Shown piece after piece: positions 1 through 6,180 of a stretch of 64,000 nt of DNA. How positions within the stretch are numbered: the stretch's first letter is position 1; every line of letters starts with the position of its first letter. The DNA is from an uncultured bacterium. Its GTDB lineage: Bacteria > Fermentibacterota > Fermentibacteria > Fermentibacterales > JCC-6. Position numbers and translations under genes: made by a program. The stretch covers positions 930-64,929 of the forward strand of contig CAYREX010000006.1 of the NCBI GenBank assembly GCA_964423505.1. The letters run 5' to 3'. Under the pieces are notes generated by a model that did not search any database, was not told the origin of the DNA, and saw only the letters and a list, made by a program, of their open reading frames with translations.

Positions 1-15
1 GGAAAGGAGAATGAA

Positions 16-423
16 ATGCAAGGGCTACTCAAATGGGTAATGATCATGATGATCAGTACAATCGTATTTGCTGGGGAGGTTTCGGACAGCGTAACCTTCA
101 ATACAGTTCAGAATGCGCCCACCGGTTTCACATCCTGGGTGTTCTACTGGTCTATGCCTGAGATTGATCCGGATGCTACCCTAGAGTACATTGTTCTCCA
201 ACCGGATGGAGATGAGTACTACCGCATGACGGTACCCGGTACTACTCCGGCAGGGCAAGGGATACGCTCAGATTTCTATGAGGGTTTCGCAGGAGGTAAC
301 CCTGAAGTTCTCTATGGCACTGACATTCAGATCATGTTCACGGTGGACAAAGGGACTATCCAATTCCTGGACGATGCATCGTATCACTTTGAATTCACGG
401 AAACTATTGATGCCATCAGATAG
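16..423 (+). CDS. Hypothetical exported protein (cassette 1), 135 aa
   Basis: ORF with RBS ggaaaggagaat preceding the ATG. Hydrophobic signal-like N-terminus MQGLLKWVMIMMISTIVFAG. No recognisable family. An attC-like element follows immediately. Confidence 0.5.
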   Translation: MQGLLKWVMIMMISTIVFAGEVSDSVTFNTVQNAPTGFTSWVFYWSMPEIDPDATLEYIVLQPDGDEYYRMTVPGTTPAGQGIRSDFYEGFAGGNPEVLYGTDIQIMFTVDKGTIQFLDDASYHFEFTETIDAIR

Positions 424-432
424 GGACTGCCG

Positions 433-507
433 AACAACTGCATGAACCATCTACGAGCGGAGCTGCTTGATCCAGGTGGTCGTAATGGTTATGCAGAGCG
501 TTGTGTG
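433..507 (+). repeat. attC-like recombination site (cassette 1 end)
   Basis: AACAACTGCATGAACCA...TGGTTATGCAGAGCGTTGTGT is an imperfect inverted repeat with unpaired bases; left end AAC, right end GTT. Highly similar copies at 1401-1476 and 2375-2448. Confidence 0.55.
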
Positions 508-657
508 GTAGGCACGGCGTCGGCTGAGAACAGAGAACAACAGGAAAACAGGCACATAGGAAATCGGGCCCAACGGACAGAAAAAGCCGCCGCCGTGAAG
601 AACAGAAAAACGGACAAATAGGGCAGAACGGACAGCAGCAGAGGAGACAGAGCCCAC
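508..657 (+). repeat. Conserved ~150-bp non-coding cassette, copy 1 of 3
   Basis: Purine-rich on the top strand (gagaacagagaacaacaggaaaacagg...aaaaagccgccgccgtgaagaacag). Bounded by attC-like sites on both sides. Near-identical copies at 1477-1625 and 2449-2592. Confidence 0.6.
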
Positions 658-731
658 AACCACAGCATGAACCAGTCGCGGAGCTGAACTCTTCGTCCTG
701 GCATCCACGCTGGTTATGCTGAGCGTTGACC
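658..731 (+). repeat. attC-like site (end of non-coding cassette 2)
   Basis: AACCACAGCATGAACCAG...CTGGTTATGCTGAGCGTTGAC, an imperfect palindrome ending in GTT. Confidence 0.5.
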
Positions 732-753
732 CTCAGAAAACGGTAGGGCGTTC

Positions 754-782
754 TTGACAAAGTGTAGCCAATAGGCTACACT
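754..782 (+). promoter_or_regulatory. Promoter with palindromic operator upstream of the higB-like toxin gene
   Basis: TTGACA at 754-759, a 17-nt spacer, then TACACT at 777-782. The perfect palindrome GTGTAGCC-AATA-GGCTACAC (762-781) overlaps the spacer and the -10. The ATG at 789 makes the mRNA near-leaderless. Confidence 0.5.
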
Positions 783-788
783 ATACAT

Positions 789-1079
789 ATGATAGAGATT
801 CGGAAGACCGAGGATTTCTCGAAGTGGCTTGATCGGCTGAGAGACATCCGTGCACGAGCACGCATTCTTGCCAGGATCAAGCGACTTGAATGCGGACTCG
901 TAGGTGATGCCAAGCCGGTTGGCGAGGGTGTATCAGAACTGCGGATCGACTACGGTCCCGGATACAGGGTCTACTTCAAGAAACATGGGAAGAACCTGGT
1001 TATCCTATTGGCCGGTGGTGACAAGCGAACACAGAGCAAGGATATTGAGAAGGCATTGCGCCTGGCGCGAGAGCTATAG
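789..1079 (+). CDS. higB: Type II toxin, addiction-module killer protein (HigB-like, RelE/ParE superfamily), 96 aa
   Basis: Translation DFSKWLDRLRDIRARARILARIKRLECGLVGDAKPVGEGVSELRIDYGPGYRVYFKKHGKNLVILLAGGDKRTQSKDIEKA matches the conserved killer-protein family pattern (...RL..G..GD.KPVGEGV.ELRI..GPGYR.YF...G..LVILL.GGDK.TQ..DI). Confidence 0.8.
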   Translation: MIEIRKTEDFSKWLDRLRDIRARARILARIKRLECGLVGDAKPVGEGVSELRIDYGPGYRVYFKKHGKNLVILLAGGDKRTQSKDIEKALRLAREL

Positions 1080-1089
1080 GAGAAGAACC

Positions 1090-1389
1090 ATGAGCAAGAC
1101 CAGAACAACTCGCTTCGAAATCGCGGAGCATCTTCGGACTCCTGAGGAAATGGCCGCATACCTTGAAGCTTGCCTTGAGGAGTCCAACGGTGATGCGGCT
1201 TTCGTGGCAAAGGCACTCGGAGATATTGCACGAGCAAAAGGAATGACACAGGTTGCTCGAGATGCAGGCCTCTCCAGAGAAAGCTTGTATAAGGCACTGT
1301 CGGGTGAGCGTACCCCTGGATTCGATACAATCCTGAAGGTAGTGCATGCCCTCGGGATGGAGCTGCACGCAGCTCCGCTTCATAACTGA
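1090..1389 (+). CDS. higA: Type II antitoxin, HTH addiction-module antidote protein (HigA-like), 99 aa
   Basis: ATG at 1090, 11 nt after the toxin stop. Translation FEIAEHLRTPEEMAAYLEACLEE...ALGDIARAKGMTQVARDAGLSRESLYKALSGERTPGFDTILKVVHALGM matches the antidote-protein family. Toxin-first gene order is typical of HigBA. Confidence 0.8.
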   Translation: MSKTRTTRFEIAEHLRTPEEMAAYLEACLEESNGDAAFVAKALGDIARAKGMTQVARDAGLSRESLYKALSGERTPGFDTILKVVHALGMELHAAPLHN

Positions 1390-1400
1390 GAAGAAGGGTC

Positions 1401-1476
1401 AACAACTGCATGAACCAGGCAACGGGGCAGGAGTGAACGATCATGAGTCCCGTGCTGGTTATGCAGAGCGTTGACG
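1401..1476 (+). repeat. attC-like site (end of higBA cassette)
   Basis: AACAACTGCATGAACCAGG...CTGGTTATGCAGAGCGTTGACG; same family as 433-507. Confidence 0.55.
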
Positions 1477-1625
1477 AGTAGGCACGGTGGCGTCTGAGAA
1501 CAGAGAGCAAGGAAACCGGGCACAAAGGAAATCGGGCCCATAGAACAAAAAAGCCGCCACCGTGAAGAACAGGAAATAGAAACCGGACAACAGGACAGCG
1601 GCAGAACAGAGGAGATAGTTTCGCC
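1477..1625 (+). repeat. Conserved ~150-bp non-coding cassette, copy 2 of 3
   Basis: Aligns by eye with 508-657 and 2449-2592, with a few substitutions and indels. Confidence 0.6.
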
Positions 1626-1698
1626 AACAATGGGCTGTAGCAGAATTGCGCCTGGTAGTGGCGATCGTCTCGCAATCAGCTAAGCCCAAGCGTTAGGT
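1626..1698 (+). repeat. attC-like site ending in the canonical core GTTAGGT
   Basis: AACAATGGGCTGTAGCAG...CAGCTAAGCCCAAGCGTTAGGT. Arms are imperfectly complementary. The right end matches the GTTRRRY core site exactly, 4 bp before the ATG at 1702. Confidence 0.6.
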
Positions 1699-1701
1699 GA
1701 T

Positions 1702-2376
1702 ATGGAATCGACTTGGTGGAGAGAGTTCGCAGAGAGGAAAATCCGTACTACCGCTTGCATTGCTGAGAATTGCCAAGGAACATATGGAGATGTTGTTCTC
1801 CTCTTATCCGCGGTGATTTCCGCAATGGCAGCAGAATGCTGGCCTGGACGATCAATTGACAAGAAACGCTATCTGCAGTTACTGGCTCAGTACGCACCCG
1901 CAACAAAAATGATCAGCACCCCAAGGCTATGTGCATTCCTGAGTTCCCAGAAAAAACATGACCAGGAGATGCGCATTCGCAACCAGTACCCGAACATCCC
2001 GAATGATGGTCGGATTGTACTCGGGCCTGAGATCGACCACAATGAGGATGAGATATTACGGATACAGGGACTAGATATCGATCTCTCAGATCTCAGAGAG
2101 TGCTCGTATGCAGCAATTCTTTATCGTGATCTGAGAACAAGTTACACGCACGAATACAAGATTGGTGATCATACAGATTGCATAAGGATGACCAGCTCGA
2201 CCGAGCCTTGTGTTTCGTACACAAACATGTTGGGGAAAAGCACTAGGCAGATCCACTTCCCATTGAGACTAATTGCGGATATCACTAAGCAGTGTGCGAT
2301 TTCAGTTGATCAGCTCAATGGGACACTGCCAAGGGAGCGGCCAGAGACTTGGTGGATTGACGGAGGGAACACCTAA
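1702..2376 (+). CDS. Hypothetical cassette protein, 224 aa, no recognisable family
   Basis: ORF starts 4 bp after the attC core. Its TAA stop lies inside the next attC, where ACCTAAC fits the RYYYAAC inverse core. No motif recognised. Confidence 0.5.
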   Translation: MESTWWREFAERKIRTTACIAENCQGTYGDVVLLLSAVISAMAAECWPGRSIDKKRYLQLLAQYAPATKMISTPRLCAFLSSQKKHDQEMRIRNQYPNIPNDGRIVLGPEIDHNEDEILRIQGLDIDLSDLRECSYAAILYRDLRTSYTHEYKIGDHTDCIRMTSSTEPCVSYTNMLGKSTRQIHFPLRLIADITKQCAISVDQLNGTLPRERPETWWIDGGNT

Positions 2377-2448
2377 CAACTGCATGAACCATCTACGAGC
2401 AGAGCTGATTGTCCTGGGTGGTCGTAATGGTTATGCAGAGCGTTATGG
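2375..2448 (+). repeat. attC-like site
   Basis: ACCTAAC-AACTG-CATGAACCA...TGGTTATG-CAGAGC-GTTATGG. The R''/L''...L'/R' architecture is visible, with one unpaired base. Confidence 0.6.
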
Positions 2449-2592
2449 AGTAGGCACGGCGGCGTCTGAGAACAGAGAACAGAGAAATCGGGCACATAGG
2501 ACAATCGGGCCCATAGAATAAAAAGCCGCCGCCGTGAAGAACAGAAAACGGACAACCGGACAACGGCAGCAGCAGAGGAGACAGAGTCCATA
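2449..2592 (+). repeat. Conserved ~150-bp non-coding cassette, copy 3 of 3
   Basis: Same element as 508-657 and 1477-1625. Confidence 0.6.
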
Positions 2593-2655
2593 ACAATCGA
2601 ATAGAGCAGACTGCTGGGCATTGATCAGGGTAGCAGCTCATTCGAAGCGTTATCT
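2593..2655 (+). repeat. attC-like site
   Basis: ATAACAATCGAAT...ATTCGAAGCGTTATCT; arms imperfectly complementary, AAC...GTT ends. Confidence 0.5.
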
Positions 2656-2678
2656 ATTAGAAGAATGGGGTACATTAG

Positions 2679-3488
2679 GTGAAGAAAATCCTCCTAAACG
2701 ATATTCTGCAAATGGGTCACTTGGACAAAGTGAAGATACGTTTTAACATGAACAATAAGGACATATGGAATCCGATTGAGTTGTTCAAATCCGGGGAAAT
2801 TGAAGAACTTCTAAATGGCCACTATTGGAACTATTCGAAAAAATCCTACAAGCATGGACAAATCACTGTGGGATTCATTCGCCTAGAGCAAGCTGACCTT
2901 TGGTTGCTCTTTCATGTTGGAGTGATTACGAAGGATCTTAACATTCTCAATGGTATCGGCTACGAGTACGAAACACTGCCTGAGTATGAGAAGTATCTTG
3001 GTCGACTTATCATTCGCTTCAAAAACAAGGCAACAAATCTGATTCGTAATGCAAAATCAGTAATTGATGATTGTGAAGTACTCCATATCCTTCCTAACAC
3101 CTTTGAAAATGATATCTTCCCTGGATATGATAAGGTAGACTTGTCTTGGAATGAGTTAAGTAGTGCAACAAGAAAAGAGGTATGGATAACAGCTTTGCAG
3201 AATCAAAAGGGCGTCTATCTGATCACCGATTCATCAAATGGGAAAATGTATGTTGGTTCCGCGTACGGAGATAGAATGCTACTTGGTCGTTGGAAGTCTT
3301 ATGCAAAGACAGGACATGCTGGCAATTCTGAGTTGAGAGATTTGAGCTTCGAGCATATCAAGGAGCATTTTCGTTTTTCAATATTGGAGATATTCAAGTC
3401 TACAACCGATGATAAAACAATACTTGGACGTGAGCAGTGGTGGAAACGAATTTTACTCACACGAGAATTTGGATACAACAGAAATTAA
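2679..3488 (+). CDS. Cassette protein with a C-terminal GIY-YIG nuclease domain and an uncharacterised ~175-aa N-terminal domain, 269 aa (GTG start)
   Basis: C-terminal KGVYLITDSSNGKMYVGSAYGDRMLLGRWKSYAKTGHAGNSEL...FRFSILEIF...REQWWKRILLTREFGYN fits the GIY-(9-11)-YIG, R, H, E, N nuclease signature. Codons are very AT-rich, giving the lowest GC in the window. Confidence 0.7.
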   Translation: MKKILLNDILQMGHLDKVKIRFNMNNKDIWNPIELFKSGEIEELLNGHYWNYSKKSYKHGQITVGFIRLEQADLWLLFHVGVITKDLNILNGIGYEYETLPEYEKYLGRLIIRFKNKATNLIRNAKSVIDDCEVLHILPNTFENDIFPGYDKVDLSWNELSSATRKEVWITALQNQKGVYLITDSSNGKMYVGSAYGDRMLLGRWKSYAKTGHAGNSELRDLSFEHIKEHFRFSILEIFKSTTDDKTILGREQWWKRILLTREFGYNRN

Positions 3489-3516
3489 TAAATTAGGTTT
3501 AGAGAAAATCTTAGAT

Positions 3517-3592
3517 AACAACAAAATGCAGCAGTACTGCGCTAGAAAATGAGAGTCAAGTTTTCGCAGTCTGCTGATTTTGGATGTTCTGC
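3517..3592 (+). repeat. attC-like site (AT-rich variant)
   Basis: AACAACAAAATGCAGCAGTACTGCG...CGCAGTCTGCTGATTTTGGATGTTCTGC. Arms are complementary with indels; AAC...GTT ends. Confidence 0.55.
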
Positions 3593-3606
3593 AGAAAGAA
3601 ATGGGA

Positions 3607-3641
3607 TTGACGAATGTATATGATGGAGATATACATCTAGC
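3607..3641 (+). promoter_or_regulatory. Promoter/operator of brnTA cassette
   Basis: TTGACG at 3607-3612, a 17-nt spacer containing the inverted repeat GTATAT..ATATAC, then -10 TATACA. The ATG at 3642 follows closely. Confidence 0.45.
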
Positions 3642-3944
3642 ATGGTGAAACCTCGCGACCGACTGAAAGAATGCACAGGGTTCGAGTGGGATGATGGGAA
3701 TGCGACCAAGAACTGGGAGAAGCACGAAGTATCGCAGTCTGAGTGCGAGCAGGTGTTCTTCAACAGACCACTCATCCTCCGAAGGGATACGAAGCATTCA
3801 GATCGTGAAGCCAGGTATTACGTTCTTGGCAATACCGATGCCAAGCGGCTTCTCTTCGTGGTTTTCACGATACTAGGTGAAAAGATCAGAGTAATATCCG
3901 CAAGGGACATGACCGAGCGGGAAGAGCAGAGGTATCAGAAATGA
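3642..3944 (+). CDS. brnT: BrnT-family type II toxin (DUF497 ribonuclease toxin), 100 aa
   Basis: GFEWDDGNATKNWEKHEVSQSECEQVF...RYYVLG...LLFVVFT...IRVISARDMTEREEQRY matches the BrnT pattern FEWD..K...N..KHG..F.E....F......R..A...ER. Confidence 0.8.
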   Translation: MVKPRDRLKECTGFEWDDGNATKNWEKHEVSQSECEQVFFNRPLILRRDTKHSDREARYYVLGNTDAKRLLFVVFTILGEKIRVISARDMTEREEQRYQK

Positions 3945-4225
3945 GGAAGATGAAAAAGATCCCGAGATTCAAGACGGAGCAGGAGGAAAGGGAGTTCTGG
4001 CGAACTCACGATTCCAGTGAGTATCTCCACTGGGACAATGCTGCCGAGGTCACCCTGGCCAAGCTGAAGCCCTCTACTAAGACGATATCGCTGCGTCTAC
4101 CGGAATCGATGATTGAGGAACTCAAGATCCTCGCAAACAAGCAGGACATCCCTTACCAGTCGCTTCTGAAAGTGTTTCTTGCAGAGCGACTTGATGAGGA
4201 ACTTGAGGCGATCAGAGCACATTGA
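3941..4225 (+). CDS. brnA: BrnA-family antitoxin (CopG/RHH-like), 94 aa
   Basis: ATGA overlap with brnT. KTISLRLPESMIEELKILANKQDIPYQSLLKVFLAERL matches the BrnA C-terminal ITLRL....YQ..L pattern. Confidence 0.8.
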   Translation: MRKMKKIPRFKTEQEEREFWRTHDSSEYLHWDNAAEVTLAKLKPSTKTISLRLPESMIEELKILANKQDIPYQSLLKVFLAERLDEELEAIRAH

Positions 4226-4228
4226 TGC

Positions 4229-4305
4229 AGAACAAGCGCCTGCAGCGGCATTACGGTCTGGGGTAGAGGAAGGCCATCGCAATCCGCTGAGCCTATGTGT
4301 TCACC
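4229..4305 (+). repeat. attC-like site (second sequence family)
   Basis: GAACAAGCGCCTGCAGCGG...CCGCTGAGCCTATGTGTTCACC; imperfect inverted repeat. A similar element lies at 5506-5580. Confidence 0.5.
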
Positions 4306-4358
4306 AGATTGACATAAACGAAAATACGTACGATATTCCGTACGGATGGAGGTGCGGG

Positions 4359-4601
4359 ATGACCAACGTAACTGTCACGGAAGCAAGGAAGAGGCTGTAC
4401 AAGCTGCTGGATGAGGTTGCACAGTCTCATGAACCTGTGCAGATCGCCGGCAAGCGGAACTCGGCTGTTCTTGTCGGGGAAGAGGACTGGAGGGCGATCC
4501 AGGAGACACTCTATCTGACCAGTATTCCTGGCATGCGGCAGTCGATACAGGAGGGCATAGCCACTCCGGTAGATGAATGTGACGAGGAGCTTGACTGGTG
4601 A
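4359..4601 (+). CDS. yefM: YefM/Phd-family antitoxin, 80 aa
   Basis: MTNVTVTEARKRLYKLLDEVAQSHEPVQIAGKRNSAVLVGEEDWRAIQETLYL is the classic Phd/YefM fold signature. RBS ggaggtg upstream. A TTGACA promoter (4309-4314) with a CCGTACGG palindrome also lies upstream. Confidence 0.8.
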   Translation: MTNVTVTEARKRLYKLLDEVAQSHEPVQIAGKRNSAVLVGEEDWRAIQETLYLTSIPGMRQSIQEGIATPVDECDEELDW

Positions 4602-4861
4602 CATGGCGGATCGTGTTCACCAAACAGGCAAGAAGAGATGCGAAGAAACTGGCCAGTTCAGGTCTGAGAGATAAGGCGGAGATCCTGCTCCAGCTGCTTT
4701 CAGATGATCCCTTCAGAACTCCGCCGCCCTATGAAAAACTGATTGGTGACCTGGCTGGTGCCTGTTCAAGGAGAATCAATATCCAACACAGGCTTGTGTA
4801 CCAGGTTCTTCAAGATCAGCGAACCGTCAAGGTCCTGCGAATGTGGACCCATTATGAATGA
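4598..4861 (+). CDS. yoeB: YoeB/Txe-family toxin, 87 aa (GTG start overlapping the yefM stop)
   Basis: ...LAGACSRRINIQHRLVYQVLQDQRTVKVLRMWTHYE matches the YoeB/Txe motif SRRI...HRLVY.V. Confidence 0.8.
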   Translation: MTWRIVFTKQARRDAKKLASSGLRDKAEILLQLLSDDPFRTPPPYEKLIGDLAGACSRRINIQHRLVYQVLQDQRTVKVLRMWTHYE

Positions 4862-4866
4862 TGGTG

Positions 4867-4942
4867 AACAACTGCATGAACCAGGCAGCGGGGCGGAGCT
4901 GATCTAACGTGTATCCTGTGCTGGTTATGCTGAGCGTTCTGC
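4867..4942 (+). repeat. attC-like site
   Basis: AACAACTGCATGAACCAGG...CTGGTTATGCTGAGCGTTCTGC. Confidence 0.55.
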
Positions 4943-4956
4943 TGTAAGATAGGAAC

Positions 4957-4985
4957 TTGACAGTGCCCTACATTGTAGCTACGAT
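4957..4985 (+). promoter_or_regulatory. Promoter/operator of second brnTA cassette
   Basis: TTGACA at 4957-4962, a 17-nt spacer with the palindrome CTACA-T-TGTAG, then TACGAT at 4980-4985. Confidence 0.5.
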
Positions 4986-5011
4986 ATGCACATTAAAGCA
5001 CTACATTTCGA

Positions 5012-5275
5012 ATGGGATCCCAACAAGGAACTCAGAACCTCGAGAAGCACGGAATCACATTCAAGGAAGCAAGCAGTGTTTTCTATGACGAATGGGCGGT
5101 TGAGTTCTACGATGATGAGCATTCGGAGTGGGAGAACCGATGCCTGATGCTCGGCCTCAGTGCTCGACTCCGGTTGCTCCTCGTCTGTCATTGCAGCAGA
5201 GAGGAAGAGTCGGTGATCCGGATCATCTCCGCCCGGAAAGCGACAGAGAATGAAGCTAGGCAGTACCGGAGGTGA
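5012..5275 (+). CDS. brnT: BrnT-family toxin paralog (DUF497), 87 aa
   Basis: LEKHGITFKEASSVFYDEW...NRCLMLG...VIRIISARKATENEARQY is the BrnT signature. It is divergent from the 3642 copy, so it is not a recent duplicate. Confidence 0.75.
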   Translation: MGSQQGTQNLEKHGITFKEASSVFYDEWAVEFYDDEHSEWENRCLMLGLSARLRLLLVCHCSREEESVIRIISARKATENEARQYRR

Positions 5276-5279
5276 AACC

Positions 5280-5495
5280 ATGAAGGACGAGTACGATCTC
5301 TCGAAGATGAAATCCCGTAGGAATCCCTATGCCAAGCGCCTGAAGAAACAGATCACGCTTCGCCTGCAGCCGGAGATCATCGAGTACTTCAAGGCCTTGT
5401 CAGAGAAAATCGACATACCTTACCAGAGTCTGATCAACCTATACCTGCTGGATTGCGTGAATCATCATCGTGAACTGAAGATGGACTGGACATAG
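5280..5495 (+). CDS. brnA: BrnA-family antitoxin paralog, 71 aa
   Basis: RBS ggagg upstream; KKQITLRLQPEIIEYFKALSEKIDIPYQSLINLYLLDCV. Confidence 0.75.
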   Translation: MKDEYDLSKMKSRRNPYAKRLKKQITLRLQPEIIEYFKALSEKIDIPYQSLINLYLLDCVNHHRELKMDWT

Positions 5496-5505
5496 AAGAG
5501 AGGGC

Positions 5506-5580
5506 AGAACAAGCGGCTGCTGCGGTATCGCGCAGGGGTAGGTAGACCAGGGCGCAATCCGCTGAGCCTTCATGTTCGCT
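5506..5580 (+). repeat. attC-like site (second family)
   Basis: GAACAAGCGGCTGCTGCGG...CCGCTGAGCCTTCATGTTCGCT. Confidence 0.5.
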
Positions 5581-5598
5581 CCCATAACGGAAGGACGT

Positions 5599-5630
5599 CT
5601 TGACGTTATGACGTTATGGCTACATGATTC
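5599..5630 (+). promoter_or_regulatory. Putative promoter with tandem direct repeat operator
   Basis: TTGACG at 5599-5604 followed by an ACGTTATG-ACGTTATG tandem repeat; the -10 is unclear. The downstream RBS gaaaggagaat-ATG is identical to the one before the 16..423 ORF. Confidence 0.35.
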
Positions 5631-5651
5631 CTCTGGAAGGAAAGGAGAATC

Positions 5652-5885
5652 ATGTCTGATCTGACGAAAAGGGCTACTGTCTACCTTGATCCTGCGCTAC
5701 ACCGGGCACTGCGACTCAAGTCCGTAGAGACTTCAAGATCCATATCGGAACTGATCAACGATGCCATTCGAGAAGAACTGGCAGAGGACGCGGATGATCT
5801 GGCCGTCTTCCGTGCACGGATTGACGAGCCCACCGTAACGTTCGAGGCCTTCGTTGAAGGACTGAAGCGTGATGGCAGGCTATAG
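5652..5885 (+). CDS. Ribbon-helix-helix antitoxin (CopG/RelB/ParD-like), 77 aa
   Basis: RATVYLDPALHRALRLKSVETSRSISELINDAIREEL is an RHH DNA-binding motif. It overlaps the downstream toxin gene. Confidence 0.7.
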   Translation: MSDLTKRATVYLDPALHRALRLKSVETSRSISELINDAIREELAEDADDLAVFRARIDEPTVTFEAFVEGLKRDGRL

Positions 5886-6129
5886 GATTCTTATCCGGAA
5901 ATCGGTTCGGAAGGATCTTGATGGAATCCCGAAGAAGGATGTGCAGCGAATCGTCAAGGCAATCAGCAGTCTAGCCGAGGATCCGCGGCCGAGGCAATCC
6001 AAGAAGTTATCCGGAGAAGAGAAGTACAGGCTTCGGTGCGGATCTTACCGGGTGCTCTACGAGATTCTGGACAAAGAGCTGGTTGTGTACATCGTTCGAG
6101 CCCGGCATCGTAGAGACGCATATAGATAG
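5872..6129 (+). CDS. RelE/ParE-family type II toxin, 85 aa
   Basis: YRILIRKSVRKDLDGIPKKDVQRIVKAISSLAEDPRP...YRLRCGSYRVLYEILDKELVVYIVRARHRRDAY matches the RelE/ParE fold pattern. Confidence 0.75.
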   Translation: MAGYRILIRKSVRKDLDGIPKKDVQRIVKAISSLAEDPRPRQSKKLSGEEKYRLRCGSYRVLYEILDKELVVYIVRARHRRDAYR

Positions 6130-6135
6130 AGAGCG

Positions 6136-6180
6136 AACAACAGCATGCAGTAGGCAACCTGCTGATGCTGAGAGTGTCGA
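6136..6180 (+). repeat. Degenerate terminal attC-like element at the array/core junction
   Basis: AACAACAGCATGCAGTAGG..CCTGCTGATGCTG is a partial palindrome. No clean GTT right end. The GC-rich core sequence begins just after. Confidence 0.35.

Follow-up and report, generated by a model that had tools for sequence, protein, structure and literature searches.

The subject of this analysis is a short non-coding element that recurs in a 64,000-nucleotide (nt) stretch of DNA, referred to below as the window, which comprises positions 930 to 64,929 of contig CAYREX010000006.1 from an uncultured bacterium of the Fermentibacterota (assembly GCA_964423505.1). Three diverged copies of the element, each approximately 150 bases long, are present, and we are confident that they form a family of integron gene cassettes without an open reading frame (ORF) in the array where they lie, propagated by recombination at attC sites. 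The reading that we favour, and consider probable as a whole, is that these diverged ORF-less copies have been multiplied through their attC sites and that their payload (the gene-free part of each cassette, ahead of its own attC) is selected as a folded nucleic acid.

The units of homology extend from a GTT to an AAC, at 500–660, 1470–1628 and 2442–2594 (copies e1, e2 and e3). A reading made earlier from the sequence only had placed three aligned copies at 508–657, 1477–1625 and 2449–2592, which is right to within a few bases, and the precise alignment for which it called gives a pairwise payload identity of 77–83%. A count over the 64 kb gives exactly three occurrences each of the blocks AAAGCCGCCGCCGTGAAGAACAG and GTAGGCACGGNGNCGNCTGAGAACAGAGA, all on the + strand, where shuffled sequence leads one to expect none, and an nhmmer profile search of the window returned the same three copies and no fourth, not even a partial one. 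On the + strand the payload is purine-rich (A 37–38%, G 30–31%, C 22–24% and T 7–9%), as the sequence-only reading had also remarked. The block in the middle of the element that it had described, an A-run with GCCGCCGCC, is real and proves to be the 3′ arm of an inverted repeat of 10–12 bp, the 5′ arm of which is CACGGCGGCG, close to the start of the element.

The anatomy of the copies is that of cassettes. An integron cassette is expected to lie between a core site GTTRRRY, with the crossover at G|TT, and an inverse core RYYYAAC that opens its own attC, itself an imperfect palindrome (R″-L″...L′-R′), the variable parts of the two cores being complementary. In each of them, the GTT at the start (G500, G1470, G2442) closes an imperfect palindrome of 75–80 nt, and the AAC at the end (658–660, 1626–1628, 2592–2594) opens a second one; the first bases of the cassette are thus the TT of the GTT in the core of the attC before it, and approximately 150 gene-free nt lead on to an attC of its own. 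The 4–6 variable bases after the GTT are complementary to those before the AAC and, because these pairs differ between copies (GTTGTGT/CCACAAC, GTTGACG/CGCCAAC and GTTATGG/CCATAAC), the two ends covary, as is expected if both form a single R box in the circular cassette. When the – strand of the six flanking sites is folded as single-stranded DNA (ssDNA), all give long, bulged hairpins with single unpaired bases on the 3′ arm at a spacing of approximately 6 bp, the opposite arm bearing 5′-AAC-3′. The placement of such extrahelical bases is known to define the bottom strand, which is the one recombined (Nivina et al. 2016, PMC5027507), and it follows from the position of the bulges that the + strand is the top strand here. 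The copies are therefore co-oriented with all of the cassette genes, the reading direction of the cassettes is rightward and the attC that belongs to an element is the one on its downstream side. It should be noted that the extrahelical bases of these attC sites are mostly C, rather than the usual G or T. The reverse orientation, in which an element would be tied to the attC upstream, was considered and is ruled out by where the extrahelical bases lie and how the ORFs are oriented, as well as by the related copies described below, which follow attC sites of other types.

Individually, all on the + strand, the cassettes are as follows (attC types are discussed below). The attC of the preceding cassette, which encodes a 135-amino-acid (aa) ORF, is of type A and lies at 429–506, with R″ GCCGAAC at 429–435 and R′ GTTGTGT at 500–506; its – strand folds into a bulged hairpin and its GTT core, 500–502, marks the start of element cassette 1. 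This cassette spans 501–725, with its payload at 501–653 and its own attC, also of type A, at 654–731, and its starting GTTGTGT complements the R″ sequence CCACAAC. Element cassette 2 (1471–1692; payload 1471–1621; own attC 1622–1698, type B) follows the type A attC of a HigB/HigA-like cassette (1397–1476, GTT core 1470–1472). Element cassette 3 (2443–2649; payload 2443–2587; own attC 2588–2655, type C) follows the type A attC of a cassette with a 224-aa ORF (2371–2448, GTT core 2442–2444), a site that is 87.5% identical to the one at 429–506 over its full length and 91% identical over the last 75 nt. Thus the earlier view that each copy is a free-standing cassette between two attC-like sites holds, the boundaries, the folds and the lack of a convincing ORF all agreeing with it. 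The copies are also not the 5′ untranslated regions of duplicated downstream genes, an explanation that the sequence-only reading had itself put forward as a possible refutation: between each copy and the gene that follows stands an attC, the genes downstream are unrelated and a related contig has three copies in tandem without any gene between them.

That contig came to light because spurious gene calls on the A-poor strand expose copies of the element in predicted-protein collections, against which the translation of this strand was searched. Two such ORFs, P0001 and P0019, led to four further copies. P0001 is on a 786-bp ENA contig (L101) that carries three tandem element cassettes (m1, m2 and m3), and P0019 is on an 850-bp contig (L107) of a deep-sea sediment metagenome from the Scotian Slope (PMC10119094), which has a more diverged copy, n1. 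The known set therefore comprises seven copies from three datasets. The cassette that follows n1 (L107, 6–215, – strand) has the gene for a hydrophobic protein of 69 aa, and the purine-rich leader of this cassette (GGGCACGGAACAGGAAAGGAAAGGAAAGGAG) was considered as kin of the 5′ part of the element, a likeness that is superficial and not significant by profile search. Other searches added no copies. An anchor scan of 185,579 reference genomes with GCCGCCNCCGTGAAGAACAG gave 94 loci, all of them chance matches of 20–23 nt in G+C-rich genomes; the anchor TAGGCACGG-N55–85-CCGTGAAGAACAG gave three loci in JGI metagenome contigs, by chance only; two anchor scans of viral contigs gave one chance match and then none; and PLSDB plasmids, searched in distant mode, gave no match. 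Exact look-ups of the cassette proteins of the window led only to short Logan and ENA contigs, from the same samples or from sister ones, on which no further copy lies, and cluster look-ups brought no additional members. Searching with a concatenated three-frame translation returned P0001 again and nothing else, and a concatenation of all the cassette proteins returned only long Response_reg proteins.

Related contigs also show the window cassettes in another order. On one (L104; ENA ERZ24794676, 52–1406), the Phd/YoeB cassette is followed directly by a HigBA cassette, with 84% identity to window 709–1422. Another (L102; Logan SRR15425351, 1–6383) is 98.9% identical to window 3004–6172 and departs from it precisely where the last attC ends, other genes following there. 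It appears from the altered order that the arrays of this lineage are being re-sorted. Integrase-mediated recombination at attC would account both for this and for the multiplication of the element, to which the tandem trio in L101 likewise points.

The evidence that the payload is more than a passenger begins with a comparison of its conservation with that of the attC to which it is joined. Among the seven copies, the payload is 74–86% identical. Their own attC sites belong to class A (e1 and m1), class B (e2, m2 and m3), class C (e3) and a fourth type (n1), and between classes attC identity is just 47–58%. A payload that, to judge by these alignments, is conserved above its attC does the opposite of what would be expected from a purely selfish cassette. 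The limits of homology are sharp, at GTT on the left and AAC on the right: e3 and m1 share GTTATGGAG...CCATAAC and then have differing attC sites, and e2 and n1 share ...CGCCAAC and then diverge. The attC sites amount to a few classes that recur across samples; that of m1, for example, is 84% identical over its full length, and 95.5% over a 67-nt core, to the attC of the YoeB cassette of the window (4862–4941). All three window copies follow a type A attC, a pattern that does not hold in L101 or L107, and we therefore treat this association as a coincidence.

Within the payload, the invariant columns form clusters (p about 1e-4 to 2e-3), in a core of approximately 95 nt and in a 3′ block, and the approximately 45 nt between them are hypervariable and rich in indels. 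The invariant sites are CTGAGAACAGAGA, the direct repeat GAAAYCGGGCACAT/GAAATCGGGCCCAT, AAAAGCCGCCGCCG and the AGAGGA of the 3′ block. The sole structural feature common to the whole family is P1, a 10-bp G+C inverted repeat (CACGGCGGCG/CGCCGCCGTG) that encloses two four-pair hairpins and has a duplex energy better than that of shuffled sequences in all seven copies (p 0.002 to 0.04). In copy 1, the core occupies 513–597 and the P1 arms are at 513–524 (CACGGCGTCGGC) and 586–597 (GCCGCCGCCGTG; duplex p = 0.011 against shuffles), with the conserved blocks CTGAGAACAGAGAACA and AATCGGGCCCA between them and the A-run at 581–585. The arms of e2 (1483–1492 and 1555–1564) hold the only compensatory change, from C-G to T-A (U-A), and e3 has P1 arms at 2455–2464 and 2527–2536, P3 at 2465–2468/2473–2476 and P2 at 2490–2493/2509–2512. 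It is from the higher identity of the payload compared with attC, the clustering of the invariant sites and this 10-bp G+C clamp that we take the payload to be selected as a folded nucleic acid. Selection of this kind, suggested by alignment statistics that are weak, appears to us more probable than not.

As to what such a fold would do, our best single guess, offered tentatively, is that the payload acts on the pyrimidine-rich bottom strand, where its structure would either block antisense transcripts in an orientation-specific way or stand beside the attC hairpins as a folded module of ssDNA. Two features lead to this suggestion. All five one-sided changes in the stems read as G-U (or G-T) pairs on the – strand and as A-C on its complement; and the – strand has U4–6 directly after the conserved arm ACGGCGGCGGC. 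This arm can pair with an upstream arm of the GCUGCUGCCGU type in five of the seven copies, giving a stem of 9–11 bp in which m1 has a double change from G-C to A-U. In a fold of the whole e3 cassette as bottom-strand ssDNA, the hairpin of its own attC comes first, and after an open stretch the P1 module and the hairpin of the upstream attC follow. A more elaborate version, which we regard as unlikely, has such a bottom-strand module, at work as ssDNA in recombination or as an antisense RNA, tuning cassette excision or insulating the array against antisense transcription, with the payload having been re-joined to at least four attC classes at the GTT/AAC breakpoints. Were that the case, payloads would be exchanged between attC sites, for instance by an R″ crossover through top-strand recombination, which is beyond the textbook cassette model.

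Several observations weigh against selection on a folded payload, or against its action on the bottom strand. The sample is small, at seven copies and three datasets. The earlier proposal that covariation be looked for met with a divided result, in that a family-wide inverted repeat emerged and significant covariation did not: over the seven copies 92.9% of cells are paired, a single pair shows changes in the two partners and the observed score is reached in 150 of 500 shuffles. The z-scores for folding of single copies range from about +0.3 to –3.3, and the G-U bias of the stem changes could be a mere product of the T-poor + strand. The terminator-like hairpin has a loop of 27–35 nt, is missing or weak in m2 and n1 and was not called by the terminator scan, and it would leave the best-conserved blocks, which lie downstream of the U-tract, without explanation. 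A sigma-70-like scan found no promoter for an antisense RNA in the copies. What looks like purifying selection could be the product of gene conversion among the copies. Finally, a tblastn search with an IntI1 query found no IntI-like ORF in the 64-kb window, beyond the left end of which the array continues; an integrase gene (intI) and attI are what set a complete integron apart from a CALIN.

The chief rival explanation is a mini-cassette that is neutral and selfish, in which the payload would have no function and the likeness of the copies would come from descent and gene conversion; we consider this possible, though less than probable. Any short DNA with an attC is propagated by the integron machinery and short cassettes duplicate easily; the element makes up three of the 11 cassettes in the window and three in a row in L101; it has no ORF, promoter or Rfam family; and covariation is weak. 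The distribution is narrow, the anchor scans of GTDB genomes, JGI metagenomes and viral contigs being empty of anything beyond chance. In addition, n1 looks like a mosaic, with a 5′ end like that of m2 and m3 and a 3′ end like that of e2, which suggests recombination between copies, and the same idea has already been raised for the non-coding cassettes of Vibrio (PMC1382264). However, a cassette of this sort needs only its attC, and it is the attC that varies (47–58%) and the payload that is kept; moreover, the invariant positions are clustered rather than uniform and P1 is retained in seven of seven copies. Another alternative accepts a functional fold and places it on the sense strand, as an RNA with a P1-clamped three-way fold that would serve as a trans-acting small RNA (sRNA), a processing site or a platform for protein binding, transcribed by read-through from promoters of upstream cassettes such as TTGACA-17-TACACT at 754–782. 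The + strand is the coding strand in every cassette and is thus most likely transcribed, P1, P2 and P3 can also form on it, and cassette-borne sRNAs are known, such as sRNA-Xcc1 (cited in PMC8876359). Nevertheless, every one-sided stem substitution is an A-C or C-A mismatch on this strand, which has neither a terminator nor an Rfam match, and a role as a sponge for CsrA/RsmA, which we considered and rejected, is unsupported because the counts of GGA and ANGGA are those expected from composition (p 0.4–0.9) and the single GGA in a loop is lost in m3. An RNA acting in the sense orientation is, in our view, doubtful.

The remaining two rivals can be given much less credence. One, suggested among the alternatives of the sequence-only reading, is that the element is a promoter cassette serving distal cassettes, or provides an antisense promoter, as in the ORF-less cassettes of Treponema (Tansirichaiya 2019, as cited in PMC8876359; also PMC2945992). 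Although e3 contains the hexamer TAGAAT, this is not conserved, and no sigma-70-like –35/–10 pair is present in any copy on either strand, in a scan that does detect promoters in the neighbouring toxin–antitoxin (TA) cassettes. A sigma-54 –24/–12 element was also tried and rejected, given that e1 and m1 alone have the GGCACG-N4-..GC spacing, the remaining copies departing from it by a shift of 2 nt. A promoter cassette is therefore very unlikely. The same scan called no canonical terminator in any copy. An sRNA had likewise been proposed; with regard to RNAs of a known kind, Rfam at gathering thresholds yields no match in the whole window, and at E ≤ 10 over 400–2700 there is none in the payload; four weak matches (E 5–10) are far below gathering scores, and the nearest of them, sR60 at 674–700, is inside the attC of copy 1. 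The other rival, a gene for a small protein or its pseudogenes, draws on the open frames of the – strand, all three of which are open and in which gene callers twice called ORFs (P0001 and P0019), and on a 36-codon ORF with a GTG start on the + strand of copy 1. Yet the openness of the – frames is due solely to the 7–9% A of that strand, and nearly every + frame has stops. No start codon, Shine–Dalgarno sequence or frame is conserved among the copies on either strand, the runs of indels between copies are mostly of 1–2 nt and the variable sites are without three-base periodicity. A conserved small ORF with synonymous changes only, which the sequence-only reading had named as a finding that would tell against it, is thus not what is seen, and we regard a coding origin as barely credible.

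The array to which the element cassettes belong occupies positions 1–6180 on the + strand and comprises at least 11 cassettes in one orientation, with an attC after each of them; all of the cassette ORFs are on the + strand, and a Logan contig (L095) extends the array leftwards with more cassettes. The copies of the element alternate with unrelated coding cassettes, five of the eight of which carry type II TA pairs. Their products are the 135-aa protein, which has no family match, a Gp49/HigB-like toxin with an HTH antidote (HigB/HigA-like), the 224-aa protein, also without a family match, a 269-aa GIY-YIG protein, and BrnT/BrnA, Phd/YoeB, second BrnT/BrnA and RHH/ParE pairs. The second BrnT-like toxin (4986–5275) looks frameshifted, with FEWDPNK in the ORF at 4986–5147 and KHGITFKEA in that at 5012–5275, and may be a pseudogene or reflect a sequencing error. 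The last attC (approximately 6131–6180) ends in GTGTCGAC, without a GTT core, immediately before the chromosome of high G+C content, and has the appearance of a degenerate terminal site. The array has 44–52% G+C and the adjoining chromosome (6230–64000), a region of rpoN, lptB and kdsD/C/A/B, has 65–73%; a gap of 20 points is unusual.

Non-coding cassettes account for a sizeable and unexplained share of chromosomal integron arrays, and the present family is a small and well-bounded test case, with a conserved core of approximately 95 nt, closed by a simple GC clamp, and seven copies that vary naturally. If the payload is functional, integrons stockpile regulatory or structural nucleic-acid modules besides genes; if the sharp GTT/AAC breakpoints represent swapping of attC, there is an extra route of cassette evolution; and, if neither is true, this is one more ordinary family of ORF-less cassettes.

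A number of known systems bear comparison. With intrinsic (Rho-independent) terminators, the element shares, on its – strand, a G+C arm (ACGGCGGCGGC) followed by U4–6, with pairing in five of the seven copies, but the loop of 27–35 nt compares with one of 3–8 nt and two copies lack the pairing. Group IIC-attC introns and IS1111-attC insertion sequences are 1–2 kb long, have a gene for a reverse transcriptase or a transposase and sit inside an attC, which they interrupt. They too are repeated elements at attC sites; the copies described here are, in contrast, 150 nt long, non-coding and bounded in the manner of cassettes, with an intact attC on either side, and Rfam gives no group II intron match for them. 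ORF-less cassettes with promoters or sRNAs are on record (PMC8876359). Those of oral Treponema integrons have sigma-70-like promoters, often antisense (Tansirichaiya et al. 2019, as cited in PMC8876359); they resemble the present ones in having no ORF and a canonical attC at the 3′ end and differ in that no promoter is detectable here. sRNA-Xcc1 of Xanthomonas campestris is a trans-acting sRNA borne on an integron cassette (Chen et al. 2011, as cited in PMC8876359) and is likewise a non-coding payload in a cassette, possibly acting as RNA; the two have no sequence or Rfam match and, from DNA alone, no promoter or terminator delimits a transcript here.

The closest parallel is with the chromosomal integrons of Vibrio, which contain paralogous non-coding cassettes that are 84–89% identical and limited to related species (Boucher et al. 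2006, PMC1382264), one such family having 45 copies in Vibrio vulnificus CMCP6, and for which both selfish and RNA or promoter hypotheses have already been raised. The statement in the sequence-only reading that either a regulatory or a selfish cassette would be unusual was therefore too strong. Like those of Vibrio, the cassettes described here are short, possess an attC and no ORF, occur as several diverged copies (about 80–90%) per array and have relatives only in related organisms. Their sequence, however, is unrelated, and the host is no vibrio but a bacterium of approximately 70% G+C from sediment-type metagenomes. The family is thus new in sequence and host, and the kind of element is already known. 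What it adds to the known cases is the spread of one payload over several attC classes, four in all, which the homogeneous attC sites of Vibrio would not make visible.

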